Counted from the first letter of the stretch, positions 3,261 through 63,000 are shown. The stretch: DNA of 64,000 nt from Mytilus galloprovincialis (GCF_965363235.1 NC_134842.1:33912757-33976756); one strand, 5' to 3'. Made by a program: numbers and translations. The notes: generated by a model from the letters alone, not told the origin.

Positions 3261-3550
3261 AGGTCAATAACGGGAATGATCAAACAGATTATTAATGACG
3301 CTAATTCTTTTAGCAAATTCATAATTGTGACGTAATGATATTGTAAAACGTATGTGATTTTGATTTGATATATTTTTGTTTCTATGATTAAAATAGCCAA
3401 TTGTACGACTAGAGTATCACCACAATGTTATATATATTCTGATTTTGCTAGATACATTTTATGTGCATTTTATAAAAGTTAAATGTAATTATTATCAGTT
3501 GCATAAAACATCTACATTTGAAGCAGTAATATTTTGGCTTTATTTTGCAG

Positions 3551-3682
3551 TAAATACATTTAATCCAACAACAACTGCTGCAGCAACAACTTCCTTGGCA
3601 ACAACAACGACAACGACGACACAAGCACCAACAACTACCACCATCAAAACAACAACGCGCGACTATAACACAGGTTTAACAG
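3551..3682 (+). CDS. Gene 1 exon: Thr-rich mucin-like linker (NTFNPTTTAAATTSLATTTTTTTQAPTTTTIKTTTRDYNTGLT)
   Basis: Acceptor ttattttgcAG 3549-3550; donor CAG|GTAGGT at 3683; phase 1/1; Thr-rich low-complexity coding typical of O-glycosylated linkers. Confidence 0.55.
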
Positions 3683-3699
3683 GTAGGTGAATACCGGGC

Positions 3700-4500
3700 A
3701 CGTGATCGAAACGCCATTATACAATCCTGTATACGTGAGAGATCAAAACGTCATTATACAATCCTGTATACGTGATCAAAACATCATGAAACAATCCTAA
3801 CACGCGATAAAAACATCATTAAACCATTATGTATACGTGATCAAAACGTCATTATACAATCATGTACACGTGATCAAAACGTCATTATACAATCCTAACA
3901 CGTGATCAAAAAATCATGAAACAATCCTAACACGCGATCAAAACATCGATAAACTATTATGTATACGTGATCAAAACGTCATTATACAATCATGTACACG
4001 TGATCAGAATGTCATTATACAATACTAACACGTAATCAAAACGTCATTAAACAATCCTGAATACGTAATCATAACGTCATTATGCAATCCTGTATACGTG
4101 ATCAAAACGTTATTATACAATTCTATATATACGTGATCTAAACGTCATTATGCAATTTTATATATACGTGATAAAAACGTCATCATGCAATCCTGTTTAC
4201 GTGATCAAAACGTTATTATACAATTCTGTATACGTGATTAAAACGTCATTATCCAATCATGAACACGTGATCAAAACGTCATTATAAAATCATATTCACG
4301 TGATCAAAAACGTCATTATACAATCCTAACATGTGATCAAAACATCATTAAACAATCCTGTATACGTGATCAAAACATTATTAAACAATCCTGTATACGT
4401 GAACAAAACGTCATTGTACAATCCTCACCCGTAATCAAAACGTCATTAAACAATCCTGAACACGTGATCAAAACGTCATTATATAAATCATGTTCATGTG
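3700..4500. repeat. Minisatellite: ~40-bp unit (acgtgatcaaaacgtcattatacaatcctgtat) × ~20, immediately downstream of the Thr-linker exon
   Basis: Tandem periodicity read directly; unit variants carry small indels. Confidence 0.85.
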
Positions 4501-4788
4501 AAATTTGTGTTCCTAATAATTAACGCTTTTTGATATTTTTCTCCTCAGTAGTAAAGTTATAAAACAGGATTTGAGTAAGAAATACCATATCTACTTTATA
4601 AAAGCTTCCCTCTCGTGTTCTCTTTGTGTGTGTAAAAGTCTCAATAGTTTATACGAGAAAAAACAACATCTAAATCTAACAACAGTGGTATACTACTGTT
4701 GCCTTTACTGAACACTTTAAAAGTCACTGTAAAAACATACTGGCACATATTATTTCATTTGGCCTAATGAACACATTTTATTTTTCAG

Positions 4789-5364
4789 AATGCCTTGGTC
4801 CTGCTGATATTGCAATTGCGCTAGATTCTTCTGACAGTCTACAAATACCAGATTTCCAAAACTCGAAGGATTTTGTTAATACATTAGTTGCCAACATGCG
4901 TATAGGAGTCAATAACATTCGACTTCGATCTGTTTTTACTTTCAGCACAACCATAAAAGATATAGTTGATGATGTGTACGACAAAAATATTATAAGAGCA
5001 TTATTGCAAGCAGCAACTATGCTGAAAATAGGTACCAATACACATTTGGCTATTCAAGAAATCAGATTGAGATTACAGAGGGCTCCACAAATATCTACCA
5101 ATCCACAATTCGGTATTATTATCACTGATGGTAAATCGGCCTATCCCGCTCTAACGAAAGATGAGGCTGATTTGGCATATAACCAAGGCATCACTATGTT
5201 CGTTGTTGGAATTGTCAGTCCGAAATATTCGATTAGCGAACGACAGACAATGATAGACGAATTATATAGAATAGCTGCTAATATTATTACCAATGTTATT
5301 GTTGTAAAAGACTTCGAAGAAATGTTGACTGCTCTGCCAATATTGAATACTTTAATTTGTAATC
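4789..5364 (+). CDS. Gene 1 exon: canonical VWA domain with intact MIDAS (DIAIALDSSDSL … GTNTHLAIQ … IIITDGKS … GITMFVVGI)
   Basis: Acceptor ttatttttcAG 4787-4788; donor C|GTAAGT at 5365; DxSxS, T-x-G and TDG motifs; whole domain in one exon. Confidence 0.75.
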
Positions 5365-5504
5365 GTAAGTATCTACAATTATCAGTTACATTTTAAGTAT
5401 TTAATAAATTTGTCTATATGTCATTTTCTTTTCTTTCCCAAAATTGTTATTTGTTTTTAAAGTGATAAAGATTATAAAACATTGTCGACTGCTGTACTCC
5501 AACT

Positions 5505-5720
5505 TTTGTCTTGTAATGACATTGTATTCAATGAAATTGTATTCAACTGTCATACAAGTGAGAGATTTAGCTAGCTATAAACGAGGTTTAATCCAACTTT
5601 TTCGAAGTAAGACAATGCATGTACGAAATGGAATATGACAGTTGTTTTCCATTCGCTTGATGTATTTGAGGTTTTAATTTTATCATTTGATAATGGATTT
5701 TCCGTTTTGAATATTTTCTT
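5505..5720. mobile_element. Interspersed repeat family D (actgtcatacaagtgagagatttagctagctat…gatggattttccgttttgaat)
   Basis: Copies at 7430-7625 and 23100-23220, all in gene introns or intergenic DNA. Confidence 0.5.
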
Positions 5721-5823
5721 TTCTATTCAAGTAGTATAATTTCAGTTGCCACGACGACCATTAATTATCTGAACTATGGAGTATTTTTCTTTTCATATTT
5801 TAAAATATTGATTATAATTTCAG

Positions 5824-5868
5824 TTGCCACGACGACCACAACTTCTACCACTGTCACCGTTCCTACAA
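5824..5868 (+). CDS. Gene 1 45-nt micro-exon: Thr-rich linker (ATTTTSTTVTVPT), phase 1/1
   Basis: Acceptor tataatttcAG 5822-5823; donor ACAA|GTAAGT at 5869; partial duplicate of its acceptor plus first 17 nt at 5738-5775 (pseudo-exon). Confidence 0.45.
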
Positions 5869-6839
5869 GTAAGTACCATCAACGTATCCTTACTAGGATT
5901 TAGATACTGTAAACCAATTTTTTTTTCGTGGATACTTTATTTCGCGTGAAGCTCTTACTAGCGAATTTCGCTACGACTTAAGTTCGTGATTATAAGTTTG
6001 CTTCGTTGATATGGAAAGAGCCCAATTTGACAAATTCTCGACGATTTATATATCCGCGTTATTGTTCTACTCGCGAAAGATGAGAAAAATAATGGAGGCT
6101 TCACTGGCCAAGTGGTCCAAGTAGTTACTACAGTAAAACACCCAAAATCAAATCAATATGGAAAAAGCCAAATTTGACATATTCGCGATGATTTATATTC
6201 GCGTTATTTTTCTACTCGCGAAAGACGCGCAAACAAATCGCTCCCGAAAATTATTTGGTGTATAGTATATTTATTAAGGGTTAACAGAGGAACTTCATTA
6301 CAGGGTTGTTGACAACTACTTGATGTTATAGTATGTATGTATCATTTTGAATACTTTTTTTACCTTGAATAGAATTGAGATAACAAACCTATAGGTTTCT
6401 ACTATTCAAAGAGTCTCAAATTAACATGACAGCAGTTTACCTATATTTTAATCTCATGTATTCGCACAGCTTACAATAAAATATATGTAGTCGTTCTTAA
6501 AATAAAAATTAGTTAGAGTTATTACTCTTTCTTCACAGTATCATTGGGCTTCTGCAATAAAACGCAGCCACCAGCTTTTTTTATTACACTTATAATTTGC
6601 AGTAATTTTAAAAAAGTGAATCTAATAAAATCAGCCTAAATTTCTTTATTAAACTCAGATACGGATCTATTTAACATGCGTTTCGACTATATTAACGTAT
6701 GTGTACAATTCTAAATATAGGGTCCAACAACCGTTTTCATTTCTTAATACTAAATAATTGCGAAAATAAGATTCCACTTGAACTTGAATAAACGCTATAG
6801 ATTTGTTAGCTATGATATGATTTGAATATGGAAATAAAT

Positions 6840-7095
6840 GACCATGATTACATATCTTATATACTACGCTTTAGATTGGTTAGTTTTGAGATAATTTGAT
6901 ATTGAAAATAAATTACCATGAATACATGTGTTATACTAATAAATACATGTGTTATACCATGCTTTCGATAGGTAAGCTATGAGATGATCTGATATTGAAA
7001 AAGGATGACCATGATTACATATCTTATACCACGCTTTATATTGGTTATAGCTATGAGATGATTTGATAGTGAAAATAAATGACTGTGATTACTTT
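6840..7095. repeat. Tandem repeat, ~75-bp unit × ~3.5 (…atgaccatgattacatatcttatac…ttgatattgaaaataaat…) ending ~15 nt before the ChtBD2 exon acceptor
   Basis: Direct reading. Confidence 0.7.
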
Positions 7096-7109
7096 CTTTA
7101 TAATACCAG

Positions 7110-7331
7110 CTACACCACAGTTTGCTACTGAATGTATAACCAGATGCGACCCAAATGCAATTCGGTGCTACGTTCCTCATCCAACAAACTGCAAGTATTA
7201 TTTGGACTGTATCAGAGAGGCAGGTGCTACCCAGTTTGTGCAGTACAGTATTCAAGAATGCGGGCTACACTACTTTTTCAATCCAGACACATCCAAATGT
7301 GATCATCTTGACGAATTCATTTGTAAACAAG
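7110..7331 (+). CDS. Gene 1 exon: chitin-binding domain type 2 / peritrophin-A (CITRCDPNAIRCYVPHPTNCKYYLDCIREAGATQFVQYSIQECGLHYFFNPDTSKCDHLDEFIC)
   Basis: Six-Cys ChtBD2 spacing with aromatic cluster; acceptor ctttctttataataccAG 7108-7109; donor CAAG|GTAAGA at 7332; phase 1/1. Confidence 0.7.
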
Positions 7332-8163
7332 GTAAGAGGTCTGATATACTAAGATCAGTCATTTAAAGGTTTCTCTAAGAAAAGTGACAAAACGAATGTA
7401 CTATGGTCAATATGATTGAATTTAAGTCGACTGTCATACAAGTAAGAGGTTTAGCTAGCTATTAATCCAGGTTTTATCTACCGTTTTCCACAAAAGGAAA
7501 TGTATGTACCAGAAAATCGAGATCATAATAGCTGTTTTCCATTTGTTTAATATGTTTGAACTTTTGCTATTTGATGATGGATTTTCCGTTTTGAATTTTC
7601 CTCGGAGCTTGGTATCTTTGTTATCTTACGTTTATGTACTGAATTTTATTCATTTAACCAAATTATTTCACTCATATTCAGTGTAACCAGGCATGCACGA
7701 TGCTTCACGACTTTCTTTTTATGAATGCATTGCTTAATCAATATCGTCTTCGTATATCATTGTTTATTTCTAATTATCATTTAAAGTTTTAATTGACCAA
7801 AATATTGTGAATAAAACCAAAGATATATTTTCTAGATGTCACTTCACGGTTTGTACCAAAAAACTAATTATAGATACCAGGATTGAAATTTTGTATTTGC
7901 GCTAGATGCGTAAAAAAATAATCACAGTGAAGCTCGAATGAAAAAAAGTTTAAAAAGCCAAATAAAGTACTACGTGGAAGAGCATTGAAGACCAATAAAC
8001 AGCTAAAGTAACATATTCCTATGGTAGAAAAGCCTAAGTATTTAACAAATTCAATGTTTTGTAAACAGATAATTTTTATAGTAAACGAATTCAGGAATAT
8101 GACAGTCATTATCCATTCTAATTCGTTTTGAATATTTTTGAAAGTTTTTTGTTTGTACTCCAG

Positions 8164-13109: not shown

Positions 13110-13625
13110 GAATCAGATATAAGAAGATGAGGTATGAGTGCCAATGAGACGTCAAAGTACGGTCTTCAACAAGGAGCCTCACACCAAGAATCAAGCTATA
13201 AAGGACCCCAAAAGGGCCAGTGTAAAACCATTCAAACGACAAAACTAACTGTCTAATATAATCTATATAAAAAATTAGAAACGAAAAACTCTTAGGAACC
13301 ACATGAACAAATGACAACTATTGAACATTAAATTCGAAAAATTTGAAACATTGCATGCATGTTCACGATGTATCCGATAATAAGACATATTGGTATACTA
13401 TTTATCTTACGTAATTATAAAGGAAAGAAATTGGTATGGTTACCAATGAGAAAACTCTTCAAAAGAGACCAAATGACACAGATATTAACAACCATAGGTC
13501 ACCGTATAGTCTTCAACAATAAACAAACATGACATCCTATAGTCAGCTAGAATAGGCCCCGAAATGACAAATGTGAAACAATTCAAACGAGAAAACTAAA
13601 GGTTTAATAGTAATGAATGTTTCAA
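13110..13625. mobile_element. Two adjacent family A SINE-like copies in a gene 1 intron
   Basis: 13110-13320 and 13436-13625 both contain the caaacgacaaaactaac / acaattcaaacgagaaaactaa core. Confidence 0.55.
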
Positions 13626-26500: not shown

Positions 26501-28816
26501 AAAATTAAATTATATATATATATTTGGCTTTCATTGTATTGGTTTGAGTGTTTCTGGTGAAGGGTAACCAAGAACAATGCTTCAAGTGAACGACATTTAT
26601 CACTAAAACAGTTATTTCATTTAAAGGGAAATGTAGTTGTTTTCACTTGTTAAATTGATAAATAATGTTTGATTTTGTAAGTTGTTATAGACTTCCCCTT
26701 TGTGAATTTACACACGAGTTTAGAATTATTGTTATACTTTTTTAAACGTTTTATGGGCCATGAGACTGAAATAGCAATAAAGTAATTTAAAAATAAAATT
26801 TACTTCAAGTTTAACACATACGGTTTATTATCTATAAGATAACAAAACAAATTAACAGTCCAGACTTATTTTGAGAATGTTAAACAATCTATAATACTAA
26901 AATAACGAGGTCCAATTTGTCAGCCGTCATCGGGTAAAAAAGACAAATCAAAGAATTCAACTTTGTATATAACTAATATAGGACAATGGTGTAGATTAAA
27001 AATTACACCACTCCACACCCTTTTGTTTTCCACATAAATAATATTGCCAATAATAAACAAGTTCCGGGTCGAATCCGATACCGATACCAATAGTATATTC
27101 ACCTGTTACCTATTACCTTATCTGTACGTTCCGCATCTGACAAGCGCACCACCAAACGGTGTAGTTAGGATTTTGCTGGTCATAATCACAGGGTTGACAC
27201 TACTAAATTAAATCATTGTCAATTTGTTCCCTATTGTAGTATTTTAATCAGTAAGACTTTCTAAGATAACAATACGAATACTAAAAATCTGGACTTAAAA
27301 TAAGGCGTATAGGTACTGATTTCAATTTGTTAGCGGGCATGACGTAAAACAGAGAATAAAAAAATTCAACTTTATTTACAATGCTGTTGATTAAAAATTA
27401 CTCCATTCCAGGACCTTTTGTTTTCCAAATAATTAATATTACCAATAATTAATAAGTTCCAGGTCGACGGGTTCAAACAGAAAGATTTTGAAAGCAGAGA
27501 AAACTATGTATCTTATAATCGGCATGACTTTATCAGATTACAATACCAATACTTAAATAAGGCTTACGCATAGTTATATACTTTAATTCAGTCACGGACC
27601 CGCGATATCACGGGTGTGTTCTAGTGTTAACTTAAAAAGCGACAGAAATTAAGTTTTGGCTACCGAGGTAGTCAGTAAAATCACAAATTTAAAATAACAT
27701 CATTCGAATAGAAATAGAAGTGATACGATTATAATACCGTGGGAAGAATTCATGATTGCTCCTATTTAGTGTTGACTTAAATACGTTAAAGCGGTTTTGG
27801 TGGTGACAGTCATTAAAACTACTAAAACCGGACCATGAATGATTCCTCTGAACGTTACTTATAAAAAACCACAAATGATTGATACCAACATGACTAAAGC
27901 AATAGTTATCGTACATTGTTTATGACTTACAAAGAAATGCGGGCTTATCATATAAACAAGAAGTTATTTACGTAAAAAACAGCAAAACATATGTTACTAT
28001 TCTAGAAATTTCAATTTAAACCCCTATATAAACAATACAGCTATAGACTTCGCATAAACAACAACAAAAACATCAAACAACCTATTCATCTATTTGTTCG
28101 GAAAATACTACATTTTTCCTAACAAAAAAGTCTTCACAAGTGCAAACATTTGACAGGAAAATGTAAGTAATTGTCAGGAGGTTAAAGTTTTAAATGTGAC
28201 GACTTGTAAATTTAGGAGGGTAATGACTTAAAACAAAAGGCTTTACTGAAATTAGGGTTTGAGTACGTGTTGTGGGAAATGTCAAGAACATGAGAACAAA
28301 CACTCACAAAATATAAAAAGTAAAATCACAAATATACTGAGCTCTGAGAAAAATTTAAAACGGAAAGTCCCCAATTAAATAGCAAAACACTATACATGTC
28401 AATCCGACGAAAACTACTTTCGGGAAATTTTCTGAGGACACATTGCTAACAACAGGTGTGCTCGCAATTTCGCACTGTTTGGCATTGATAGGGTGATAAG
28501 GCTGTCTGCTTGTATGTTCAAGGTCTTTATTCAAAATATTTAAATTTCGGTTACGTTTTTTATTATAATAGTTTGCATAATGATAAATATAAATATATAT
28601 AAACGTTCTAATTTAAAATTTGAGTAAAAGCAACCTTCATCTTTTAAGGCTATTTTACATAAGTCTAGTGTGATCACTTCTTCAGATTATTTTCATAAAA
28701 AAAAAACCTGACATTTGCCTCTGTTATTACATAGAGTCCCATAAATAGCAACTTTCACTGAATGTTAAAAATAGTTGCCAATATATGTAAACCTTAATTT
28801 CTTGTTGCTTGCTTAC

Positions 28817-29175
28817 CTTATATGGTAATCGGATTTCAGCAGGTCCACTAGCAACTGTATCTGCTCTAAAAATAACTTCTTTATTTCTTGGCGCTAATGC
28901 AATTTCAACCGCACCTAATTCATTATCCGCACAATTAGAAACTAATACTTGTTCATCCGGGCCTCCTGGGAAATCGTAGAAACGCAAACTTATTGTCAAT
29001 TTTTGTCCGAAGTCAATATTTTTATACATCCATATTGTTAACTGTCCGATACCGTTAAATCTACCAGCGTTAGCAACAGAATCCACGTGACCATTATTAC
29101 CAATGGCAATGTGTGTGCCGCCATTATCTATAAGTGGTTTACTATCATAGTCTAAATATATTTCTGGTCTGCAAT
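28817..29175 (-). CDS. Gene 2 exon: unassigned ~119-aa module ((Y)CRPEIYLDYDSKPLIDNGGTHIAIGNNGHVDSVANAGRFNGIGQLTIWMYKNIDFGQKLTISLRFYDFPGGPDEQVLVSNCADNELGAVEIALAPRNKEVIFRADTVASGPAEIRLPYK)
   Basis: Minus acceptor cttcaatttCAG (plus 29176-29178); donor AAG|GTAAGC (plus 28815-28816); contains ORF 28727-29086; paralog of gene 1 exon 10729-11081. Confidence 0.6.
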
Positions 29176-45600: not shown

Positions 45601-48600
45601 AATTGACTAATTAGTTTCACTAATTATATTCACCAAATCTAATTAGATTTTACCGGAATAATTTAGTGATTTTTCTTACCTTTGATCTTTGAAATTTTCT
45701 TTCCCCGTCACTGGAAATTAAACTCTTTCCTTGAAGTCTATAATGTGTGACTGTTCATCGTTGCATTTGCGAACATGGTGCTTTCGTCTTAACTGTAGTA
45801 CAACCGTTTGTATACTTTGTATAAGTCGTTATTTGCAATGGGGCGAAATGCTGCATTAAAGTTGGGACTAAAATAGTGTAGATCTCTAACTGCTGCCATC
45901 TGATTACTTTGCGTCCGTCGCTTTATTTTGCTTATATCGGACACATTTCTGAATCCATTTATTAGCCTAGGATGTCACCATAATCCACGATTTAAACCAA
46001 CAACGTGACAGTATCCTCTTAATTTATGGTTATAATTGTTAATGCATGATCCAAAAGAATTAAGTAGTTTTTAAGTTCACGAATAATAAGATATGATAAA
46101 AAAAAAATAACTAAATTAGAAAAACACTTCACAATAATATTTTATGACAAACAGACAATTACTTAGCATTAATTCGTTTTCGTAAAAAAGAAAGCATTCA
46201 CATTCCAGGCTCATGGTATCTTTTAAACGAATGTATCTTTTTCACAGAAACAGATGTTATCCGCATGGAAATCCGATTCACTTTTGCATCACAAAGGTAA
46301 AATCTATTTACCTTCGACTCAATAAAATGCCTTGGTCAATAACATTTAAAGGAAACTCCAGAACATACTGAAATGCCACAAGTAGACAGTCGTGCATTTC
46401 CAAGTTCTCTTATTTATTTATTATTTGGTTGGTCTCCCTAAAATTACTAAATTTCACTGTGAAAGTCATCTTTTTAATCCCTTCTGATATATATCTGATG
46501 AATTTTATTTCAGAAACACGAGTCATGACATATGAAGAAAAACATATCATGTTTGGTAGACAGCAACCCAACACCACAAATAGACAAAATTATCTGAAGA
46601 ACAACATAAAAAGACTTCACTCAAAACACGCAAGAAGTCTCCGAAAACTCAAAACACTCAAGAGGACACCGACAACTAAAAACACTCAATAAGACTCCGA
46701 TATCTTGAAACACTCAAGACCCAGATAACCCAAAGCACTAAGAACAACAACGACAATTTAAAGCATTTAACAAGACTCAGACAACTAAAAACACCCAACA
46801 AGACTCAGACAACTAAAACACCCAACAAGACTCAGACAACTCAAATAAAGACGATGATAAATGTGATTCAATGTGATAATTTCAATCTTAAAAATTGAGA
46901 ATGGAAATGGGGACTATATTAAAGAGACAACAACCCGACAAAAGTGCAAACAAGTCGGAGGCCACCAATGGGTCTTCACCGCAGCGAGAAAAATTCCCAC
47001 ACCCGGAAGATGTCATCAGCTGGCCCCTAAATAAAATTGTGTACTAGTTCATGATCAGTGAAAATGGACGTCACACTTAAATCCAAAATATATATAAATG
47101 AACTAATTAAAAATTAAAACACATACAAGACTTACAAAGTCCAGAGGCTTCTAACTTGGGACAGGCGCAAAATAGCGGCGAGGTTAAACATGTTTTTTGA
47201 GATCCAAACCCCCTTCCCCTATACCCCTAGCCAATGTAGAATAAAGAAACACATAACAATATAATAATTTACATATTCTCTAATGAATCATCTGACTGAG
47301 ATACGATTCTTCATTACTTTGATAAGAACAGGGGATGTAAGTGTTCATTGCAAGTCAAACTTTGACTTCTGAATAAGGGTTGTGCTCAGTTTTTAAGTAT
47401 TTAGTCTGCAATGACTTTCTGTGACACCTAGGAATATGAAAACATGGAAAACATATCAAACACTGTCGACCTTGCGTTCTGTACTGAGATTTTTGTTGTG
47501 TGCGTTTTTAATGGAATGAACAATCAACAATTACGCACTAAATAAGTCCGTTAGTTTTCTCGTTTAAATTGTTTTACATTGTCATTTCGGGGTCTTTTAT
47601 AGCTGACTATGCGGTATTGGCTTTGCTCATTGTTGAAGACCGTACGGTGACCTGTAGTTGTTAATTTCTGTGTCATTTTGGTCTCTTGTGGAGAGTTATC
47701 TCATTTGCAATCATACCACATCTTCTATTTTTATAAGCAAGTATTATTATAATTTACATTTACGTATTGGGCTACATCGTTGTATGTTTAACTGAACTAA
47801 GTACATATGAACCAAGTATGTTTATGACGAACTGTTTTAATCTGTATTTTGTATGATGTATTGATCTCTTAAATTAAGTTTTGGATGATTAAGTAAAATG
47901 TATCTTTTCGTATTTTTCAATTCATAATAATTATGCTAATAATGTAAAGTATGCCTTTGTGTATGCTTATTCATTTGAAAAAAAAAAACACGCTATAAAA
48001 ATGTTTTATTCCATAAGAGCAACCAAGCATGTTTCTAATTATGCGTCAATAATTAATCGAAACAATTTGAAATGATACATCTAAAATTATAACTGCATTT
48101 GTCCCACTTTCACTTTCCTGATTGTCCCTAATTCTTTTATCATTACATCGTTTTCGTGCCACCCTATTCAGTTCTGGATATTCAATTTATAGTAAAGATA
48201 ACATTAAAACAAGAAATGGTTAATACAAAAATTATTTAAAGATTTTCAAGCCGGGGGGTTTGGGTTGCGAACCACTCCAAAAAAAAAACTAAATCCGCTA
48301 GTGTGTTTGACTATTGACGAAGATAACAAAGGAAGATTAACATGTTTGTGATTCACAAAATCTTTACTCTTAGGTCCAAAATAAACTCACTGTATTTTCT
48401 TTGGTTTTGGTGGGGTTCGTGTAGCTCCGTCTTTATAGTTTTGTCAAGCCATTGTCAGTTTGTTTTCGAATTATGAGTTTGAATATTCCTTTGGTAATTT
48501 TATATACATTGAGTTTATTTTGGACTTCTAAGAGTAAAGATTTTATGCGAACATCGATGTAGGAGAAATTCAAACCTTTGTTCATGTTATTTATAAATAA

Positions 48601-49660: not shown

Positions 49661-49959
49661 TAAAGTTTTTGGTCGAGGTAGTGTTGTATCGGAAGTTGAA
49701 ATCCAATCAACTTGAAACTTAGTATATATGTTCCCTATGATATGATATTAAAAAATCAGACATTTTGTCCCATTTTTTTTTATTTGTATTAATTATTGAG
49801 AACTAATTGTTGCATTAAAAAAAAACATAATAGTTAACAAAACGAAGTAATAAAAACTGGTGTAACATGTTCAAAACACATGTATGCTACATTCAATCAA
49901 AACCCGGCACAAAATTATTTTAAATTAAAGCTTTCAGGTTGTACCAATATGATAAACAA

Positions 49960-50800
49960 AGCAAGTTGAACATATCACTGATAAACAAAGCAACATAACT
50001 CTGATGCATTGATAAACAAAGCAACATAACACTGATACACTGATAAACAAAGCATCATAACACTGATACACTGATAAACAAAGCAACATAACACTGATAT
50101 ACTGATAAACAAAGCATCATAACACTGATATCACTGATAAACAAAGCAACATAACACTGATACACTGATAAACAAAGCAACATAACACTAATACACTGAT
50201 AAACAAAGCAACATAATACTGATACACTGATAAACAAAGCAACATAACACTGATACACTGATAAACAAAGCAACATAACACTGATACACTGATAAACAAA
50301 GCAACATAACACTGATATACTGATAAACAAATCAACATAACACTGACACACTGATAAACAAAGCAACATAACACTGATATACTGATAAACAAAGCATCAT
50401 AACACTGATATCACTGATAAACAAAGCAACATACATATAACACTGATACACTGATAAACAAAGCAACTTAACACTGATACACTGATAAGCAAAGCAACAT
50501 AACACTGATATACTAATAAACAAAGCCACATAACACTGATATACTGATAAACAAATCAACATAACACTGATACACTGATAAACAAAGCAACATAACACTG
50601 ATACACTGATAAACAAAGCATCATAACACTGATACACTGATAAACAAAGCAACATAACACTGATACACTGATAAACAAAGCAACATAACACTGATATACT
50701 GATAAACAAAGCAACATAACACTGATACACTGATAAACAAAGCAACATAACACTGATACACTGATAAACAAAGCATCATAACACTGATACACTAAGTACC
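49960..50800. repeat. Satellite: 36-bp unit (ctgataaacaaagcaacataacactgatacact) × ~23
   Basis: Direct reading; a degenerate older array of a related unit (cactgacacataaagcagtataaca) continues 50800-51150; track ORFs 50055-51144 are repeat artefacts. Confidence 0.85.
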
Positions 50801-51852
50801 TAACACTGACACACAGAGCAACCTAGCACTGATACACAAGGCGGTATACCACTGACACAAGAGGAGTATAACACTGAAACAAAAAGCAGTATAACACTGA
50901 AACAAAAAGCAGTATAACACTGGCACTCAAAACAACATAACATTGACACACAAAGCAGTATAACACTGACACATAAAGCGGTATACCACTGACACAAAAG
51001 GATTATAACACTGAAACAGAAAGCAGTATAACACCGACACTCAAAACAACATAAAGTTGACACATAAAGCAACATCACACTGACACTCGAGGCAACATAA
51101 TACTGACCCACACAGCAACAAAACACTGACACATAACGCAACATAACACGGACACATGAAGCTATTGATCACTGAATATACCATTGCCCAAGGTTATAGG
51201 ACCTTTTACATTATATGCATGTCTATCTCGTCAGTAGCCTCTGATTCAGTGGTTGTTGTTTGTTGCTGACTGTTGTATATGTGCTGGTTGATTGTTTTAT
51301 TATTGTTTAGTCCGTTTGTTTTTTGTTTTGTTTTGGTTTTTTTATTAAATGCTGTATTATATCATGTCGAGGAGTTATAAGACTGACTGTACATTATTGG
51401 TTTGGCTCATTGATGAAGGCCGTACCATGACTTTTTAGTTCTTAAATGCATAATATTTGGACTCTGTTCGATGGTTGTTTCAATATAAATCATACCGGTA
51501 TTACATCTCCTTATTTTATATAACTTGCTGATAAAGAAAGCAACATACCGCTGATTAACAGATAAACATAACTACTTATTGCTGATAAACAAAACAAAAT
51601 TTTGTTGATAAGCAAAACCATTCTCAACAGCTTTATGCAACGGATTAAAACATCAAATTCAAAATTACAGACACTCGTCAGGGGAGATAATGTTTAACAG
51701 TCATGCAACGCAATGTTATTGTAACATTTGAGAATTGGTTAAAACATATTTCAACCTCATTGCTTATGAGCAGCCACAAGCTACATATCAGTTATTTATT
51801 TTCAGACATTTTTTAATACTTTTGCATATAAATAACAATTCTTATACTACAA

Positions 51853-51858
51853 TTTATT
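51853..51858 (-). terminator. Polyadenylation signal AATAAA (minus) ~210 nt downstream of gene 3 stop
   Basis: Plus-strand tttatt at 51853-51858, downstream of stop at 52070 on minus. Confidence 0.35.
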
Positions 51859-52069
51859 TAGCACTAGGCTGACAACATCTCACTATTTGTTCTCCTCATA
51901 CAAAGTAAGTTTTCTGAAATTTCTCATCCATTTACCGACATTCTCCGAATGGACTCAGTTTTTGTGTTAAAGGCAAATTTGAAATTTCATATATTCAGGA
52001 TTTCGATATCTTAGTTTGTAATACATTATCCCTTCAAAGGTCATAAAACGGACGGTTTGATTTGTCTTC

Positions 52070-52437
52070 TCAGTGAAATATGCAATTAACTTTGTACTCT
52101 TCCTCGCAGATTTTGGTTTCATTATTAAAATACAGATCACGTGGACACTTTTGAACATATGGAATATTGTCGAAACAATTTAAAAACTTTTTGCAGGTTT
52201 CTGGATGCGGAAACAGACCCATGTGACTTGGACACGTGATCATTGAGTAACATGGAACTGCATCTTTATGATTGCAAGCTTTAATAGAGTTGTCAAAGAG
52301 CATCCCTGTTGGACATCTTTCACGAGCAGGAATATTCAAATCACATTTAAATAGGTAGGCACAATTATAAGGATCCTGAAATATTGCATTTAGGGAGGGG
52401 CAAATAACTGGTGGGTTCGGACTTGGTTTCCAAAATT
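52070..52437 (-). CDS. Gene 3 last exon: two tandem ChtBD2 domains plus stop (…PPVICPSLNAIFQDPYNCAYLFKCDLNIPARERCPTGMLFDNSIKACNHKDAVPCYSMITCPSHMGLFPHPETCKKFLNCFDNIPYVQKCPRDLYFNNETKICEEEYKVNCIFH*)
   Basis: Minus acceptor ttttctttacAG (plus 52438-52445); stop at plus 52070-52072; two complete 6-Cys ChtBD2 patterns; the track's M at 52339 is a TTG codon, not a real start. Confidence 0.7.
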
Positions 52438-53756
52438 CTGTAAAGAAAAAAATGAATTAGCATGTATTGTAAAGGTTCGACAGAATACCGAATACCAAAA
52501 ACGCTAACCGGTTAACCGGTCTTTTTTTCAATTTTGATAGATTTGATATAAATTTGTATTGAAATGAACAAATAGTTATGGTTTTTTTTTTAAATGTCGT
52601 CGTGGTAATTAATTTGACAGATAAATTGTCCAGTATATTGATTGCTATTGTTAATCCTAAAAACATAAAATTAATTAGAGCAAGGGGCAGGATCTTAAAG
52701 AAACATAATTAGTATATATGTTTTTTTAACAGTAATTTTAAATCAGTAATGCAATTAAATTTTACTAATTACTTCATTATTTTGTTTTTTATCTAAAATT
52801 GTGTAAACCTACATCTAAATGTGCAACCTCCGTAGTGCAAGGCTTAGTATTACTTTAAACGAAATGCTAACTCAAAAATTGTGATTTGCAAACCAGTGTG
52901 AATGTACCCAATGTATACGTGATAGTACGAGTTGCATGCTAAAATAAACAAGCAAACAAAGTAAAGAAACATGTCGTACGGTGACCTATAGTTGTTCATT
53001 TCTGTGTCATTTTGGTCTCTTGTGAAGAATTGTCTCATTGGCAATCATACCATATCTTCCTTTTAATAATAAATCATTTCAAATTGAAACACTCAACATT
53101 ATTTTCGGAGACAACAAGAGAAAGGGAAAGAATAATCGGTTTCAGACAAATTCAGTTCAACGAGCTCAAGAAGATTTTTTTTTCATTTTTCAATCTGAAG
53201 TTGGTACAAACGCTATAGATACGGTGTATTCGATTATTAAAAGTCAAACTTCCCCAGGAATCCTCACAGACAAGCCTTATAATGCCAAAGGACAATCTTC
53301 AATTTCATAAGCGTAAATTCATTACTTGGATGAAATGTTGTCAAATTGACACTCATACCACATTATCTATGTGTAGGTACTATTGATAAAGCTTTCAAAC
53401 ACCAACTTAAACTACCGGTTAACCGGTTGATCAGTCGAACGATTATCCGAGTAACCGGTTAGGAAAAAGTGTACAATTTGACAACACTAATTTATTTACA
53501 TGTCTGTATAAATAAAATACAACGTAGATTTTATTTAATTTTACGTAAAGAAATAAAATGCCGCTGTTTCCGTTTTCTTGATGTTCAGCAAATTTCGGGT
53601 TAACAGATATATGATGTTTTCCAACATTTCTTTGTATTAAATGGTATTTAGACGAAAAGTCTGTGTTGCACACAATACACATGTACTACGATCAAACCGC
53701 CATCATTGACACGACGAAAGTGTTTAGTATATACTAGATTAATTTATAATATGTAG

Positions 53757-54757
53757 CACTGAACATTTTACGTTCCGTTCAATGTTGTTCATACGTTGTT
53801 ATAATTTTGACAATCAAAGGGAGGTTATATGTGAATTTGTGTTTGAAATGAAATTAATGTCCTGTACACATTAAAATGGAGTCAATAAATTAAAAATGGG
53901 GAAACACTAGATAGTGGATTGTTAACTTCCGGTCATTTTGAGGCAAGCCCTGAACGATCTTTCATACTAACGTTACAAAAGCGTACATTTTCAAGGTTCA
54001 AAACTCTGAAATACAGTGGAGATAACTTCTAACCTCTCATTAGAACTGTCAAAATAATTTGTCATAGAACTGTTTTAGATAAACTGTCATAGAACAGTTC
54101 TAACTACAAACGTAGAACAGTGCTACCCTAGAACTGTTCTAAGTATAACTGTCAGAATCAGTTCTAGCTATAGAACTGACCAAATCAGTTCTAGGTAGAA
54201 CTTTCAGGATCAGTTCTATGGTAGAACTGTCCAAATCAGTTGTAACCATAGAACTGCCAACAGAACTGACAAGACAGTTCTAACCGTGGAATTGTCAGGA
54301 TGGTTGAACAGTTCTAAATGACGTCACTGCAGTTAGAGAAATGTAAAAAGAGTGCTGTGATGATTTTTTTTTTAATATATATTATATTCTTTTGACTTGT
54401 TTATATTTAAGACAAAGAGTTCTAAAAACTGTTCTATGGAGAGAAATGAATAAATCAATTAGTCAGTCCTAATAGAACTGACCAAATCAGTTCTAATCGT
54501 AGAACTGTCTAATACTGTTCTAGGGTAGAACTGTCAAGATCAGTTATAGGTAAGAACTGTCTAAAAGGTGTCAGGATGACAGTCCTACATACTTTTCTAG
54601 AACAGTTCTCCTGACATATTGTGACATATTTGATGAGAGGTAAGAAGTTATCTCCACTGTAGCACTGAAAATTCTACATTCCGTTCTACTCCTTTCAGTG
54701 TTGCTTAAACGTTGTAATAATTTTGACAATTAAACGGAGCTTAAGTTTACTTACTTG
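53757..54757. mobile_element. Foldback-type element: ~80-bp direct flanks, ~30-bp inverted repeats (cagtggagataacttctaacctctcatta / taatgagaggtaagaagttatctccactg), internal arrays of palindromic ~22-bp units (CAGTTCTA…TAGAACTG)
   Basis: Direct reading of 54017-54046 vs 54633-54665 and arrays 54040-54320 and 54410-54610; lies in the gene 3 intron. Confidence 0.6.
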
Positions 54758-54799
54758 GAAAACAATTGTCAGCTGTAACATTTACAACATCTTCTATTG
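54755..54799 (-). CDS. Gene 3 candidate 45-nt micro-exon (AIEDVVNVTADNCFP), phase 1/1; may be skipped
   Basis: Minus acceptor ttccctttCAG; donor CCAA|GTAAGT; phase-compatible, but direct VWA-to-last-exon splicing is equally in frame; lies at the edge of a foldback repeat. Confidence 0.3.
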
Positions 54800-55394
54800 C
54801 TGAAAGGGAAACACTTTAGGTCAGTAATTGGACTCAAGACAAATATAACAATTTAAATCATACATGTATGCAATTCAGTCTTTGTTTTCAATCTAACTTA
54901 TAGGACAGGATGAGAGTACTTGTTCTATGTAAAGAACAATAACTCTTGATATCAAACAACTGTTGAATTTTTTTTTTTTACTTTGATCAAAACGACTGAT
55001 GCCATATGTGAGGCACGATATGTATATCCTAGCGGAGATCACCCTCGGTTTTTTGTTGGAGTTCATCTTGCTTAGTCTTTAGTTTTTTTTATATAGCGTC
55101 TTGTAAACTATTGATTTAACACACTTTTTTTCTGTTTATTCTGAATTTGTTGTTTGAATCAAATATTAATTATACAATTTAACAAAAAACTGTTTGGATA
55201 AAGGGGAAAACAAAAAACACAAAATGTATAATTCAGATTGAATTTCCGTTGATGAACGAAAAAATATTAAGATATATAGTTTATAACAGTACAGATTCAT
55301 AGCAACAAAAAAAGGGATTTTTACCAGATGTTTGATTTGTGTAATTTTTCATATGTGTATAATCAATTTGAAATACATGCAAAAAGAAACGAAC

Positions 55395-55991
55395 CTGTGC
55401 ATATACTGCTCCCGATATAAGGTAGAAGACCTCTTAGACCTTCCGAGTAACTTTCCATTGAGAAAACATTACATTTATGAGAGGCTATCTCTGGAAACCA
55501 TTCACCATTCGGCATTCGTCCAACTGAATACATGTCGATTCCAGCTTCCTTAAACTGTTTTGTAGCTGCAATGATATCGGGAATCATATCTGCCTGAACT
55601 GAGCCATAGGTGAACATTACTCCAATTTGTTTGGTGTCGGGTCTAGGTAATACCAGAGGATAACCGGATGGATTTCTGAACATTTGTCGCATTAAGTAAA
55701 GTGCCGCTTTGACATCTGCTGCTCCTTTTAGTTTTCCATTGTATAATTCTCTTTGCGCAAGAAGGCTTATTCTGGTATTGGTTTGTGTTTGATCCTTCAT
55801 TGGTTGCGGCCAACTGATTGCCACAGCTTCTCTTCCGTATAATATCAGACCAATATTTACATTATCTCTGTCGATTTGAAAATAATCTGTAAGCATGGTT
55901 AAAAATCGTTCAAACGGAAAGAATTCTTCCCCCGGAATGTCTGCGTTCCCAGGAATAGCAAATATTATATCTGCCTTCCCTCCACAATCGG
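55395..55991 (-). CDS. Gene 3 exon: VWA domain, MIDAS degenerate (ADCGGKADIIFAIPGNADIP…IGLILYGREAVAIS…LVLPRPDTKQIGVMFTYGSVQADMIPDIIAATKQFKEAGIDMYSVGRMPNGE…ICT)
   Basis: Minus acceptor ctatttttAG (plus 55992-55993); donor CAG|GTTCGT (plus 55393-55394); contains ORF 55363-55896; phase 1 in matches exon 1. Confidence 0.7.
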
Positions 55992-57334
55992 CTAAAAATA
56001 GAAATATCAGTATAGATGTTAATTACGACAGTTAAACAGACATCTAGAGAGGATACTTTAACCTTCGATACTGACATGATTCCTAACAATCCTATCTTAC
56101 ATTTTCTTTTTTAATAAATTTTGAAACGATTGAGAAACGTCGGCTTGTATAATCTTTTAATGTCCCTTTTGGTTACAAACAGCTCATCGCATACATCCTT
56201 GATTTACTGAGAAACTTTGACTAAATTTCCCTTTAATGAATTTGCATATTCTTTTATTGTATTTTTCTGTTCTTTAAAACGACGAATTTTGACAACATGA
56301 AATTTTAAACTCATTGATGCTTTATCACCCAAAATAGTGACGACGGGTGTGCTCTAAACATGTCGTAATGTCAATCCCGTCCTCTTTTCCTTGAATCATG
56401 TGACCAGCTGAATAAGACTTATAACCGAGTTTGTACTTGCTTTAGCAACACGATGGGTTCAACATGTGGAGCAGGATCTGCTTACCCATCCGGAGCACTA
56501 GAGATCATCCCGGTTTTTAGTTGGATCCGTGTGACTCAGCATTTGGTTTTCTCTGTTTTGTTTTGTAGATTTTCTTTTTGATTTTTTTTTTTTTTTTTTT
56601 TTGTCGTTTTTTCTTGCCATGTACGTCATTGTTATAGTTCATTTTCGACTTATGAGTTTAAATATCCCTTTGGTATTTTCCTGCAGTCTTTAACAATTCC
56701 AATATCCAATATTGAATATACTATAGAGCATTGTACTATACAGTTACAAAATGAATTGGCGTAGGACAGGGTTATCTAATTATACATCTTCTATTTACTC
56801 TGTTAAATGACATCATCGTGTTGTTGCGTTTTTGTCTCAATGGAAAACTTTTTCTTTGTGATATCATGTTCTTGATTGACTTATGATTATGCCGACCAGT
56901 TGTTTATATCTATTATTTATAATTAAAATTGCCTTCAAAACTGTCGTCAAATATCCATGCATTTATCTAGTTTATTTTGCACATGAGCCATCATGTATAG
57001 GGCGGCGTTTAAAGTCAAAGTTTTCGTATATGAATATTATATACCAACTATTTATGACATTGTACTAAGAGATTACACAAATGCTTCTTATTTAATATGT
57101 TTTTCAAACTTTTCAGTAAATTTGATTTTTCACTGAATGTAAAAAAAATAATTAATAAAACATTCAAAGAGGAGAATAATTTGACTCTCGGCAAAATAGA
57201 ACGTTCTACCGGTTTGTAAGTGGATTTTCTAATACGTTTGTCCAAACCACTATATTGATTTTTTTCAATTAATTATGTTTGGTTGTTATGTAAGCAATAA
57301 TTACGTTTAAAGATAGCCAATAAAAAGAACTTAC

Positions 57335-57392
57335 CTTGTGCTTTGTTGAATATAACCACAGAAGAGACAATGTATAAGAAAGTAAACAACAT
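57335..57392 (-). CDS. Gene 3 exon 1: start codon and signal peptide (MLFTFLYIVSSVVIFNKAQ|A)
   Basis: True ATG (plus 57390-57392 complement) followed by a hydrophobic stretch; donor CAAG|GTAAGT (plus 57333-57334); joins VWA exon in phase to give …NKAQADCGGK. Confidence 0.55.
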
Positions 57393-57437
57393 CTTGGCTC
57401 TGCAAACAAAACAAGTTTTTTGGTTATAAACAAATTA

Positions 57438-57445
57438 TTTATAAA
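57438..57445 (-). promoter_or_regulatory. TATA box (TATAAATA on minus) ~46 nt upstream of gene 3 ATG
   Basis: Minus-strand sequence cctttataaataatttg…gtttgcagagccaagATG. Confidence 0.35.
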
Positions 57446-60279
57446 GGTTATCTAAGGTGGTCAGAGTGATTCGATTTGACAAAATATATGAGTGTCTGGA
57501 TGGGATTTTCAGAAAAGTAAATAATGACTAAATGAGCAAGAAATAAATAATGAAGAATTAAAACGTAATGAATTGATAAAATAAGTAAAAACAAATATGA
57601 CAATAAAGAATAATGGGGTGTTCAAATGTCGATTAATAAGGAAAATCCACCAACAAATTAAAGAACATAATATACCAATGACTTGAGAAATTAAAGAATA
57701 CAGAAAGGAAAGAACCCCCATTCGGACCCTCATATATGGCAATAAAACAATTAATTTGCAACACGTTTTTTTTTTTTATTTGTGTATTGTCTGACAATAA
57801 AATGTAGATTTGTGACATTATGTTACGTTAAAAGCATTTTTATGGTTTTGATCTCGTCTTGTTACATTTGTTGACTCATAATTTTGACCATGCCGTAGAT
57901 CAGAAACATTCTCAATTTTAAAAGTCGCATGTTCTCTGGGACACGTATTTGTACCAAAAATTTCGGTTTTGATGATTTAATTTAAACAAAATTATAAACA
58001 TTATGCCGACTTTCAGAGAAGAATTAAATGGTTTAAAATTACACTTATTCTTTCAAGAATTACACCTAATACACTATGAAATAGTGTCAATTTAATCGAA
58101 TTTTATTCGAATTAATTCAAAGTTTCAATGCAAAAAGAAGTACATGCAAGTGGGTTTTTTTTTTAGAAAAAAAGCTGTAAAATGTAAAAAATACAAGTCT
58201 TCATTTCACTTACCTTTCGAAGAATAATAGGTTTTTAATATTATTATAATCATCAATTTTCCTTTTAACAAAAACTCAAAAGGTTAACATTTCCAAGTAA
58301 GAATTGTGGCGTTTTCTTTTTGGAAAGTAAGAAAACTGGCACAATGAAATATAATGTCTCGTTCAGTTAACCGTAAAAAATGGTCAGATCGTGTTGCCTT
58401 CATATGTTAATTTAACACAATAAATACCTCATTGATATATCATAATGATTATTTTGTCACTAATTTATATATATTAACGATGACCAGGTCGAGAATTTAT
58501 GACTATTTCACGATCAAATTAATTTATTCATATGTTTTTAGTATAACCTGTCTGCAAAAGCGAAATATATATATTAATATATTAAATGCATTTTTCCAAA
58601 AAGATATAGTCTTGCATTTTTGTTTCACGAAAGTGAATACAGAGAAATAGAGTTCGAAAGGATACTTTGAAGCTTGTTTTAGGTATATACATGACTTAAT
58701 CATATTACAAAGTGTGAGTAAAAGGTCTAGACATAAAAAAGACACATCAAACACCTACATAAAAAATGGAAAGACCTAGTCTTGACTGAAATATTTCACA
58801 TTCTAGGAAATGACTGGTTATCTGTGACATTAAGCATCAAACTTAATTGACTAGACAGTAATTACATTTCCTGTTTTTATATCTATTCATTCTGGTATAT
58901 TTACGGGCACTGAATCATATGAATATAACCTATTGACGAATGAATATCAGTTAAAAGACATGTTCCCACTAGTTTTTTGTTTTTGTTTTTATCATCTCAC
59001 TAGTGATAAGCCCCCGCACAATAATCATCTCAGCTTAACATAAATGTCAACGAAATTAAAACAAAAAACAGGTAGACTTTTGAATAAAACAATTGTTGTT
59101 TATGAAGGCCCCCTTTTTGTTTAGGTGGTGGGGATACGGGAGGGTACTATTTCGACGGATAAGTAAGTCTACATTGGTAGACAATAGTCGTATTATAGTC
59201 GGGTATGAAAAGCAACTACATGTACATGGCAAAATTTGATTTAAAACAATTCAAAGGAAGACTGAGATAAACAATGATATGATCTATAGCAAAACAATGA
59301 ACGAAAAACATGCATTACAGACAGCAACCATGCAACAACAAAAACTGAATCACCTGATCCTCACCCAAGTTATATTAAGTTCAAATTACAGCCAATTAAT
59401 TCATGTATGATCATGACACTGTTCTCCCAGACTAAAATATGATTAAATACACGTCTTTTTTTTTATCCAAAGAGTGTATAAACAGAAGTTTAGATATAAA
59501 ATAGTTTGATTACTATTGAACCACAATCGGGCTTAGGAGCATTAACCGTGAGCTGAAGGAGATAAAATCCAAATATCTCGATTGCTCTTTGTTCGTTGTC
59601 CCATACATGCACACATACAGACGGCTGTTTATAGTATTACTGGAGACATTGGCATCGTGAACAATGACCAACTTAAAAAGTTGTAAGGCAAAAGCCCGAA
59701 ATAAGGCATTACCCGGCTTATCAACTAGAAGTAGGATACACAGGCACTTGTTTCTGTCAATGTGGGGTTTACTATCCATACCAGTACAAAAAAAAAAACA
59801 CACGGTAGCTAACGGAAATTTTCAATGTGTTCGCTTCAACCAATATTTTCTTAATTTCCCTTGATTTTTTCACAAATAAAAGTACACCAGTCTGTCGGTA
59901 ATTGATTTATCTTTACAATGAAACAACTTTCACGTACCTTGAGAATACCCCTCAAACAGAATAACACACTTCAGATGAGAATTATTGACCTTTTTCCAGA
60001 CCATTGAATTTGTAAGGACTTAATTTCCGGTAAACTTAGGAAGTTAATATAACTGTGCAATCCCATTGGTTTAATTCATCTGGTTACCTGTTTATTTATA
60101 CTAGTTACCAGTAACCAGAAAAATGTGACCAATGGGATTATGTGTCTATTTCAATTGATTCAATTAGTTAATGTGGAAGATTTTAACTTAATAAGTCATT
60201 TAAAACGCCCCGATTCAAGCTTAAATATGAAAAATCTATCAAATATGCCAAAAATCGTCACTTTTCAGATGGTTTTTGT

Positions 60280-62140: not shown

Positions 62141-62685
62141 TCGTAACATGAGGCATCCAAATACAAAGTATGAAGCATCCAGGTATTCCATCTTCTTAAA
62201 TATAAAGCTTTTTAGAAGTAAGCTAACGCCTCCGCCGCCGGATCACCATCCCTATGTCGAGCTTCCGGCAACAAAAGTTGCATGCAGGCTCGACAAAATC
62301 AAATACTGAACTCCGAGGAAAATTCAAAACGGAAAGACCCTAATCAAATGGCAAAATCAAATGATAAAACACATCAAACGAGCGATCAACAACTGTTATA
62401 TTCCTGACTTGGTACAGGCATTTTCAAATGTAGAAAATGGTGGATTGAACATATAGTTTTAAAGCGCTAAACCTCTCACTTGTACGACAGTCGCATCAAA
62501 TTCAATTTTATTTTATGTCACAAATAGGGGTACAACCACACGAATCCCATCCAAAACTAGGGCTGATTTCAGGAGATCCAGAAGGGTTAGCAGATTGTAC
62601 TCCTCATGTAGCACATGTCATATTGCTCGTGTTATTACAAAGCCGGTTAATAGTGTAAACATTTAATATAAAAAAACAAGATGTG

Positions 62686-63000
62686 GTATGATTGCCAATG
62701 AGACAACTATCCACAAAAGACCAAAATGACACGATAGGTCACCGTACGGCCTTCAACAATGAGCAAAGCCCATACCGCATAGTGAGCTATAAAAGGCCCC
62801 GATAAGACAATGTAAAACAATTCAAACGAGAAAACTAACGGCCTTATTAATGTAAAAAAATGAACGAAAAACAAATATGTAACATATAAACAAACGACAA
62901 CCACTGAATTACAGGCTCCTGACTTGGGACAGGCACATACATAAATAATGTGGCGGGGTTAAACATGTTAGCGGGATCCCAACCCTCCCCCTAACCTGGG
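62686..63000. mobile_element. SINE-like interspersed repeat family A, most complete copy (…ggtcaccgtacggccttcaacaatgagcaaagcccataccgcatagt…acaattcaaacgagaaaactaacggcc…)
   Basis: Further copies or fragments, in both orientations, at 10560-10640, 13110-13320, 13436-13625, 20918-21135, 41100-41225, 47570-47660, 51370-51425, 52975-53045. Confidence 0.65.

Follow-up and report, generated by a model that had tools for sequence, protein, structure and literature searches.

The stretch of DNA analysed here, 64,000 nucleotides of Mytilus galloprovincialis (GCF_965363235.1 NC_134842.1:33912757-33976756; hereafter the window), contains on its minus strand, between positions 57392 and 52070, a functional M. 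galloprovincialis gene for a small secreted protein, in which one von Willebrand factor A (VWA) domain is followed by two chitin-binding domains of the CBM_14 (ChtBD2) family. Judged from its sequence, this gene belongs to a conserved orthogroup of small VWA plus CBM_14 proteins that are devoid of the metal ion-dependent adhesion site (MIDAS), within the known class of molluscan matrix proteins that combine a VWA with chitin-binding domains. The observations presented below comprise the gene model, the domains, the loss of the MIDAS, purifying selection, orthology to two gastropod shell proteins and the conservation of a micro-exon. The most likely role of the product, proposed here with moderate confidence, is that of a metal-independent adaptor for proteins, anchored to chitin in the shell framework of the mussel.

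Gene structure and encoded product

The coding sequence is distributed over four minus-strand exons with AG/GT borders throughout. The exon with the initiating ATG (57335..57392, 58 coding nt) ends at a GTAAGT donor at 57334 and is followed by a 597-nt exon (55395..55991), preceded by tatttttag, which codes for the entire VWA domain (residues 20-219). A micro-exon of 45 nt and phase 1/1 (54755..54799), with cag/GTAAGT borders, encodes (A)IEDVVNVTADNCFP(K), and the last coding exon (52070..52437), preceded by ctttacag, contributes 365 nt plus the TGA (52072-52070) and encodes a Pro-rich linker and the two CBM_14/ChtBD2 domains. The in-frame join amounts to 1068 nt and 355 amino acids, and omission of the 45-nt exon preserves the frame and gives 340 amino acids. 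An initial annotation of the window had placed four exons at these positions with the same GTAAGT donor, and all of them were found on the minus strand, their in-frame join being 100% identical to RefSeq XP_076107305.1 of M. galloprovincialis and 99% identical to VDI12459.1. The gene model is already in public annotation, and the present result is mainly the correct coding model of an annotated gene.

The first coding exon encodes MLFTFLYIVSSVVIFNKAQ together with the first base of Ala20 and corresponds to the signal peptide region. Its N-terminus has a 14-residue uncharged hydrophobic core with Ala at -3 and -1 (A-x-A) before Asp21, and a similar N-terminus, ending a few residues ahead of the first conserved Cys, is found in all 12 family members, in agreement with the signal peptide assigned to this exon by the initial annotation. 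An AlphaFold model places an isolated low-confidence helix at this end of the protein. Secretion was called from such N-terminal features and from the recovery of orthologues from shells, and signal-peptide cleavage is predicted between Ala20 and Asp21. Repeat comparison showed that the ATG exon occurs only once within the window, so it is not part of a repeat there.

The predicted domain composition of one VWA and two complete ChtBD2 domains was likewise recovered in Pfam. The VWA domain (PF00092) matches at residues 27-203 (E=4e-11; 43.9 bits, the cut-off being 23.8), and CBM_14 (PF01607) matches in two stretches with E=5e-19, each holding six Cys (246-296 and 302-352). The CBM_14 part also matches CBM_14 proteins of solved structure. 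No other Pfam match was obtained at E<=1, and the protein ends three residues past the final Cys of the second CBM_14. The mature protein would consist of 335 amino acids (37.9 kDa, pI 5.6) of unremarkable composition, with neither a low-complexity or acidic region nor an R-x-K/R-R site; two N-glycosylation sequons are present and the secreted protein is probably N-glycosylated.

The gene is under purifying selection. Comparison with M. californianus gave an overall ratio of non-synonymous to synonymous divergence (dN/dS) of 0.15 (dS=0.50, dN=0.076), with values below 0.18 in the VWA domain, the linker and both CBM_14 domains (0.11 in the linker, 0.05-0.06 in CBM_14). In the 20-codon signal peptide seven non-synonymous and zero synonymous differences were counted, and hence no ratio can be computed for this part.

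Loss of the metal site in the VWA domain

By sequence comparison, all five MIDAS positions are lost in the VWA domain of the mussel protein, which bears out the degenerate motif noticed in the initial annotation. Alignments to collagen VI and to the VWA domain of a neighbouring gene (described below) show that DxSxS is replaced by P33-G-N35-A-D37, with the Asp replaced by P33, the first Ser by N35 and the second Ser by D37, and that the Asp of the TDG motif is replaced by Y148; in our reading of the alignments, the position of the MIDAS Thr is occupied by Ala in this protein and is variable among orthologues. Pro occupies the position of the MIDAS Asp (P33) in 12 of 12 aligned family members from bivalves and gastropods. 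The loop/helix that follows the MIDAS-equivalent site (PGEEFFPFERFL) is nearly invariant in bivalves and is a candidate metal-independent binding face.

Four cysteines outside CBM_14 (C22, C193, C217 and C231) are invariant in the alignment of 12 members, as are the CBM_14 cysteines, with exceptions in gastropods that are given below. C22 and C217 lie at opposite ends of the VWA domain, as in the A domains of von Willebrand factor (VWF), and C193 and C231 are probably partners.

Structural comparison employed an AlphaFold model built from nine orthologues (pLDDT 73.5, pTM 0.74), the VWA part of which matches PTMP1, integrin I domains, collagen VI N domains and VWF A1 in Foldseek (E down to 1.6e-10, probability 1.00). 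The best match, PTMP1 (the mussel byssus proximal thread matrix protein, PDB 4CN8; E=1.6e-10), is likewise a secreted VWA protein of a mussel extracellular matrix, but differs by the presence of two VWA domains, one with a metal-occupied MIDAS, by the absence of CBM_14 and by an identity of only 15-19%. VWF A1/A3 and the N-terminal VWA domains of collagen VI bind ligands with no functional MIDAS and resemble the mussel domain in having a Rossmann-like fold with no intact metal site; collagen VI alpha3 provides the nearest solved sequence matches, and the VWF A domains share the Cys at each end. VWF and collagen VI are, however, vertebrate multidomain proteins without chitin-binding domains, and the homology holds at the level of the domain only (~15-21% identity in structure alignments).

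Orthologues in bivalves and gastropods

Colinear relatives of 346-374 amino acids are present in Mytilus, pectinids, oysters (Crassostrea), Solemya, Mya, Dreissena and Haliotis, and a shorter model of 301 amino acids, with one CBM_14 as compared to two in the mussel protein, is present in Lottia. In BLASTP, Haliotis laevigata CLC_4146 is 36% identical to the mussel protein over 341 residues (E=2e-65) and the Lottia member is 34% identical (E=3e-44); CLC_4146 is in turn 76% identical to the family member of H. rufescens. The signature of the orthogroup, found in full in the mussel protein, consists of Pro at the MIDAS Asp position, the four cysteines C22, C193, C217 and C231, a CFP linker and the 45-nt phase-1 micro-exon. 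Lotgi1|238400 of Lottia gigantea and CLC_4146 share with the mussel protein the order of signal peptide, VWA and CBM_14, the replacement of Asp by Pro at the MIDAS (AVPGS), the same four extra Cys and the CFP linker, and the H. rufescens gene has the same 45-nt micro-exon. The three gastropod sequences differ by lacking the N-glycosylation sequon that the micro-exon carries in all bivalve members.

A profile search covering 1.84 billion representative proteins returned five single-stretch matches that span most of the profile (P0001, P0062, P0064, P0069 and P0110; 202-672 bits). The other single-stretch matches were VWA-only fragments and the remainder long multi-repeat proteins, of which ten were looked up and turned out to be vertebrate collagen VI/XII-type chains or unnamed entries. 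Matches of ~2200-2300 amino acids with 6-7 stretches had been guessed to be orthologues of BMSP; those looked up were vertebrate collagen VI chains, and the guess was abandoned. A further profile search with the alignment of bivalve and gastropod members added only pectinid paralogues.

These paralogues define a second scallop form of 374 amino acids, 31-35% identical to the mussel protein (P0069, P0216-P0218), in which PRT takes the place of PG(S/N) behind the conserved Pro and the loop equivalent to the MIDAS contains an insertion; Pecten maximus carries this paralogue and the orthologue on a single 46-Mb record (LR736845.1). In the second CBM_14 of the abalone sequences P0064 and CLC_4146 (alignment columns ~345-395), two of the six Cys are gone (C315 and C352 of the mussel protein) and four are kept. 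In our reading, the lost pair corresponds to Cys2 and Cys6, which would amount to the coordinated loss of one disulfide.

Two gastropod orthologues are shell proteins. Lotgi1|238400 was described as a major acid-insoluble shell-matrix protein (Mann et al., PMC3374290). CLC_4146, annotated as 'similar to endochitinase' with a signal peptide, a VWA and two chitin-bd_II domains, is listed among the major shell proteins of H. laevigata (Mann et al. 2018, PMC6003135), where it accounts for 1.96% and 1.45% of two acid-insoluble prismatic-layer samples and for <=0.06% elsewhere, and where its identified peptides cover the VWA as well as the CBM_14 domains. The initial annotation had suggested a matrix component that anchors to chitin and binds proteins, and this idea gains support by orthology.

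Relation to Pif and BMSP

The gene had initially been regarded as a minimal version of the Pif/BMSP architecture, and the order of the domains is indeed alike. Pif (Pif97/Pif80) of Pinctada fucata begins, like the mussel protein, with a signal peptide and one VWA followed by peritrophin-A chitin-binding domains, and the job proposed for both is the same, namely that of a chitin anchor and protein-protein adaptor in the shell framework. The VWA domain of Pif97 pulls down other shell-matrix proteins (PMC11291548). The likeness stops there: the mussel protein lacks the laminin-G/ConA-like C-terminal region of Pif/BMSP as well as the acidic/low-complexity CaCO3-binding half (Pif80, BMSP100) and the R-x-K/R-R processing site. 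BMSP is described as a preproprotein that gives rise to BMSP 120 and BMSP 100, and bivalve BMSPs carry four tandem VWA domains (Shimizu et al. 2024, PMC11291548), as compared to the single VWA here; the BMSP of M. galloprovincialis is a protein of shell-type VWA plus ChtBD2 architecture from the same species.

Membership of the Pif/BMSP clade was defined by Shimizu et al. 2024 (PMC11291548) by BLASTP to the VWA domain of PfuPif at E<1e-10 followed by phylogeny, giving 50 members. The Lottia orthologue, Lgi_238400, appears in their tables S2 and S3, which hold all VWA proteins, and neither in table S4 (BLAST-selected) nor among the 50 members of table S5. The same table pattern is shown by four oyster identifiers that are candidates for the orthologue. 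The Pfam VWA match of the mussel protein has E=4e-11, as compared to 1e-21 to 1e-31 for the listed Pif/BMSP family members. As indirect evidence, the table pattern leans against membership of the Pif/BMSP clade, and published membership lists together with the features listed above lean towards a distinct orthogroup set apart from it.

Proposed role in the shell framework and its main alternative

In the proposed mechanism, the signal peptide would be removed, as predicted, between Ala20 and Asp21, and the two C-terminal CBM_14 domains would attach the secreted protein to the chitin fibres in an extracellular matrix. The VWA domain, with no MIDAS and with the family-specific loop/helix PGEEFFPFERFL at the would-be metal site, would need no metal ion to bind its partner proteins in the matrix, in the manner of VWF A1/A3, and the four invariant cysteines C22, C193, C217 and C231 would probably pair in two disulfides, locking the VWA domain onto the linker. 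The likeliest matrix would be the insoluble organic framework of the shell, into which the protein would be secreted by the mantle like its gastropod orthologues. Its presence in the mussel shell would follow by analogy with these orthologues, and binding of chitin and of partner proteins is deduced from the domain families only.

Several findings weigh against placing the protein in the mussel shell. A comparison with shell proteome sets, as recommended in the initial annotation, revealed no family sequence in the shell-proteome supplements of M. galloprovincialis (PMC4517812, based on expressed sequence tags) and Perna viridis (PMC6641155). Logan contigs of Mytilus clusters gave no full-length spliced copy. 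Half of the VWA plus chitin-binding (VWA-CB) genes of Pinctada are not expressed in shell-forming tissue (Zhao et al. 2018), and the architecture is classed in the literature as 'non-SMP', that is, outside the shell-matrix proteins, in bivalves. Searches of paper text for bivalve accessions, LOC numbers and candidate oyster CGI identifiers found no mention, and family peptide motifs, when looked for in main texts, yielded nothing beyond chance matches. Three VWA or chitin-binding entries of the M. galloprovincialis shell proteome that were checked, collagen-like protein-4, collagen-like protein-5 and BMSP-like protein, have sequences unrelated to this gene.

These negative findings would be accommodated if the same chemistry, a chitin anchor with a protein-binding VWA, served a non-shell chitinous matrix in bivalves, for instance in the lining of the gut or the gastric shield, in the periostracum or ligament alone, or in a structure of the larva, with the role in the shell being specific to gastropods. 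We regard this as possible, though rather improbable. The orthologue was recovered as a major insoluble shell protein in two gastropod proteomes independent of each other, and the orthogroup is strongly constrained with the same architecture in both classes. Moreover, the proteomic negative is weak for a protein that would be chitin-bound, cross-linked and acid-insoluble, especially when an expressed sequence tag database is searched. A chitin-anchored adaptor of the mussel shell framework is retained as the preferred role.

An ancient micro-exon and a probable upstream exon

A separate 45-nt phase-1 exon with AG/GT borders is present in the window, in a second M. galloprovincialis assembly (L002), in M. 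californianus (L001), in Pecten maximus (L003) and in Haliotis rufescens (L004). As it is shared from mussels to abalone, the micro-exon predates the split of bivalves and gastropods. Its peptide is found in every full-length orthologue and holds the invariant Cys231, together with the N-x-S/T sequon kept in bivalves and missing in the three gastropod members. In oysters, the orthologue is represented by an intron-less 1071-nt open reading frame (ORF) that includes the micro-exon segment, on contigs from public sequencing runs (listed in 41 blocks) that we read as cDNA.

The 5' side of the gene holds a further conserved signal. The start codon is directly preceded by ttgttttgtttgcag|AGCCAAG-ATG, in which a pyrimidine tract with CAG (ttgttttgtttgcag, 57400..57415, minus strand, 7 nt before the ATG) has the properties of a strong 3' splice site and is probably the acceptor of an intron in the 5' untranslated region (UTR). 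With the window included, five species have a pyrimidine tract with YAG 7-24 nt ahead of the ATG, the others being M. californianus, Pecten maximus, Haliotis rufescens and Crassostrea. Three annotated or assembled oyster forms diverge upstream of a common 'GERM', one being MKIK-GERM, another LIYT-GERM and the third a read-through form; in M. coruscus, the model has ...SENR-VKM. In these oyster and M. coruscus models, different upstream exons are hence joined exactly at this acceptor. From this sequence evidence, the ATG exon is probably exon 2, preceded by a non-coding exon. No equivalent of the upstream exon used in the M. coruscus annotation was found in the window. This exon (…VFQRSNILIVSENR) matches positions 6271-7067 of the M. 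californianus record L001 as three tandem copies with ~335 bp spacing, ~3 kb upstream of the ATG, and is either a lineage-specific 5' exon in a tandem repeat or an annotation artefact.

These findings bear on the gene model as initially drawn, in which transcription would start ~25 nt after a TATA box (TATAAATA), the ATG exon would be the first, and the micro-exon would be alternatively skipped to yield a 340-aa isoform. The motif TATAAATA does exist at 57436..57443 on the minus strand, separated from the ATG by 43 nt, and both M. galloprovincialis assemblies retain it. Its position is, however, a 28-nt gap in M. californianus, and the 8-mer is common in this AT-rich window (24 copies against 14.4 expected). 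As an upstream non-coding exon is probable, both the TATA box and the supposedly complete 5' end are doubtful, and the motif may be intronic. For skipping of the micro-exon speak the phase symmetry of the 45-nt exon, the removal of which is in frame, and a single skipped form, the M. edulis annotation CAG2185679.1, which at 340 aa is exactly the predicted product. Against it, the exon is kept as an exon as far as Haliotis with its invariant Cys, forms part of every RefSeq orthologue model and of the oyster cDNA contig, and its omission would leave Cys193 unpaired if C193 and C231 are partners. The micro-exon is an ancient exon whose optional status is unsupported, and the initially drawn model, with the acceptor conserved in five species and used by upstream exons in oyster and M. 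coruscus, is as a whole unlikely.

At the other end of the gene, the 3' UTR to the first AATAAA covers 51853..52069 on the minus strand, with the hexamer at 51858-51853, 211 nt past the stop. The polyadenylation signal proposed at about 210 nt is thus in place and lies within a stretch conserved in M. californianus. The block 52451-51919 of the 3' UTR region is 84.5% identical to that species; the hexamer by itself is no better than chance, as its 243 copies in the window correspond to the chance frequency.

Neighbouring gene, repeats and haplotype divergence

A second gene of the VWA plus CBM_14 type occupies 947-7366 of the plus strand and extends past the window's 5' end. It contains three ORFs of ~200 amino acids, two of which (947-1588 and 2001-2615) are VWA-like by eye with no Pfam VWA match, and the third of which (4767-5396) matches Pfam VWA at 1e-18 with intact DxSxS and TDG motifs. 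A CBM_14 exon follows at 7079-7366 (E=3e-5), and the gene looks BMSP- or Pif-like; a homology search with it gave one unnamed match, 56% identical. The possibility that the gene described here is a recent tandem copy of this neighbour was rejected, since the two VWA domains are only 23% identical and the MIDAS of the neighbour is intact. Between the two VWA-CB genes, an isolated ORF of 119 amino acids (…GRFNGIGQLTIWMYKNIDFGQKLTISLRFYDF…, 28727-29086, minus strand) has no Pfam match at E<=0.1 and may be an exon of an unrecognised gene.

Intron 3 harbours, outside the gene product, an element of ~650 bp (54012-54661) resembling a miniature inverted-repeat transposable element; its terminal inverted repeats measure 45 nt (87% complementary), and its interior contains TAGAACTG...CAGTTCTA repeats of 25-27 nt. 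A stretch of ~86 nt just past the micro-exon donor (54658-54743) recurs at 53752-53827, and a dispersed repeat of ~95 nt is present in four copies (85-90% identical), at 52975-53074 in intron 3 and at 47641-47736, 13414-13506 and 62661-62732. About 0.7 kb downstream of the polyadenylation signal lies a minisatellite block (49950-51156), in which a 31-nt unit occurs 27 times (92% matches) ahead of arrays with periods of 23 and 114 nt; the repeats of the block create spurious ORFs of 114-138 amino acids.

When the region 51244-59713 was compared with the second M. galloprovincialis record (UYJE01002633.1), non-coding DNA was found to be 75-92% identical with large indels, and the alignment ends upstream of 59713, a very high haplotype divergence within the species. 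Alignment to M. californianus outside the exons is patchy, at 72-79% identity.

Significance for molluscan shell matrices

Domains of the CBM_14 type are found in immune-related chitin-binding proteins and VWA domains in complement-type factors. A secreted immune or pattern-recognition lectin, which would bind fungal or parasite chitin and recruit effectors by its VWA, is nevertheless very unlikely even with both domains occurring in immune-type proteins and with immune-related domains noted among shell-matrix proteins in shell proteome papers, given that the gene is single-copy and slow-evolving (dN/dS 0.15), not expanded or diversified like mussel immune genes, and that its orthologues are abundant structural components of the shell matrix.

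Beyond a chitin-anchored adaptor in the mussel, a broader proposal is tentative, possible though not probable. The family may represent an overlooked, ancient conchiferan orthogroup that arose before the split of bivalves and gastropods, does not fall in the Pif/BMSP clade and has as its defining features a VWA in which the MIDAS is replaced and one Pro never varies, and a conserved Cys-bearing micro-exon of 45 nt. It might then provide a core chitin-to-protein linker of the outer (prismatic/periostracal) shell in all shelled molluscs, missed in bivalve proteomes because it is bound covalently or to chitin in the insoluble fraction.

Proteins that combine VWA and chitin-binding domains are seen as part of the basic toolkit of shell formation, and attention has so far been on Pif and BMSP; the gene described here belongs to a smaller, simpler and strongly conserved relative of these. 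If its bivalve members are in the shell, the family would offer a tractable model, a 38-kDa protein with no repeats, for the coupling of chitin to the matrix without a metal-dependent VWA site, and would be a rare case of a shell-matrix protein whose orthologues in different classes correspond clearly one-to-one. Should they be absent from the bivalve shell, it would be a case of one orthologue deployed in different matrices in two classes.

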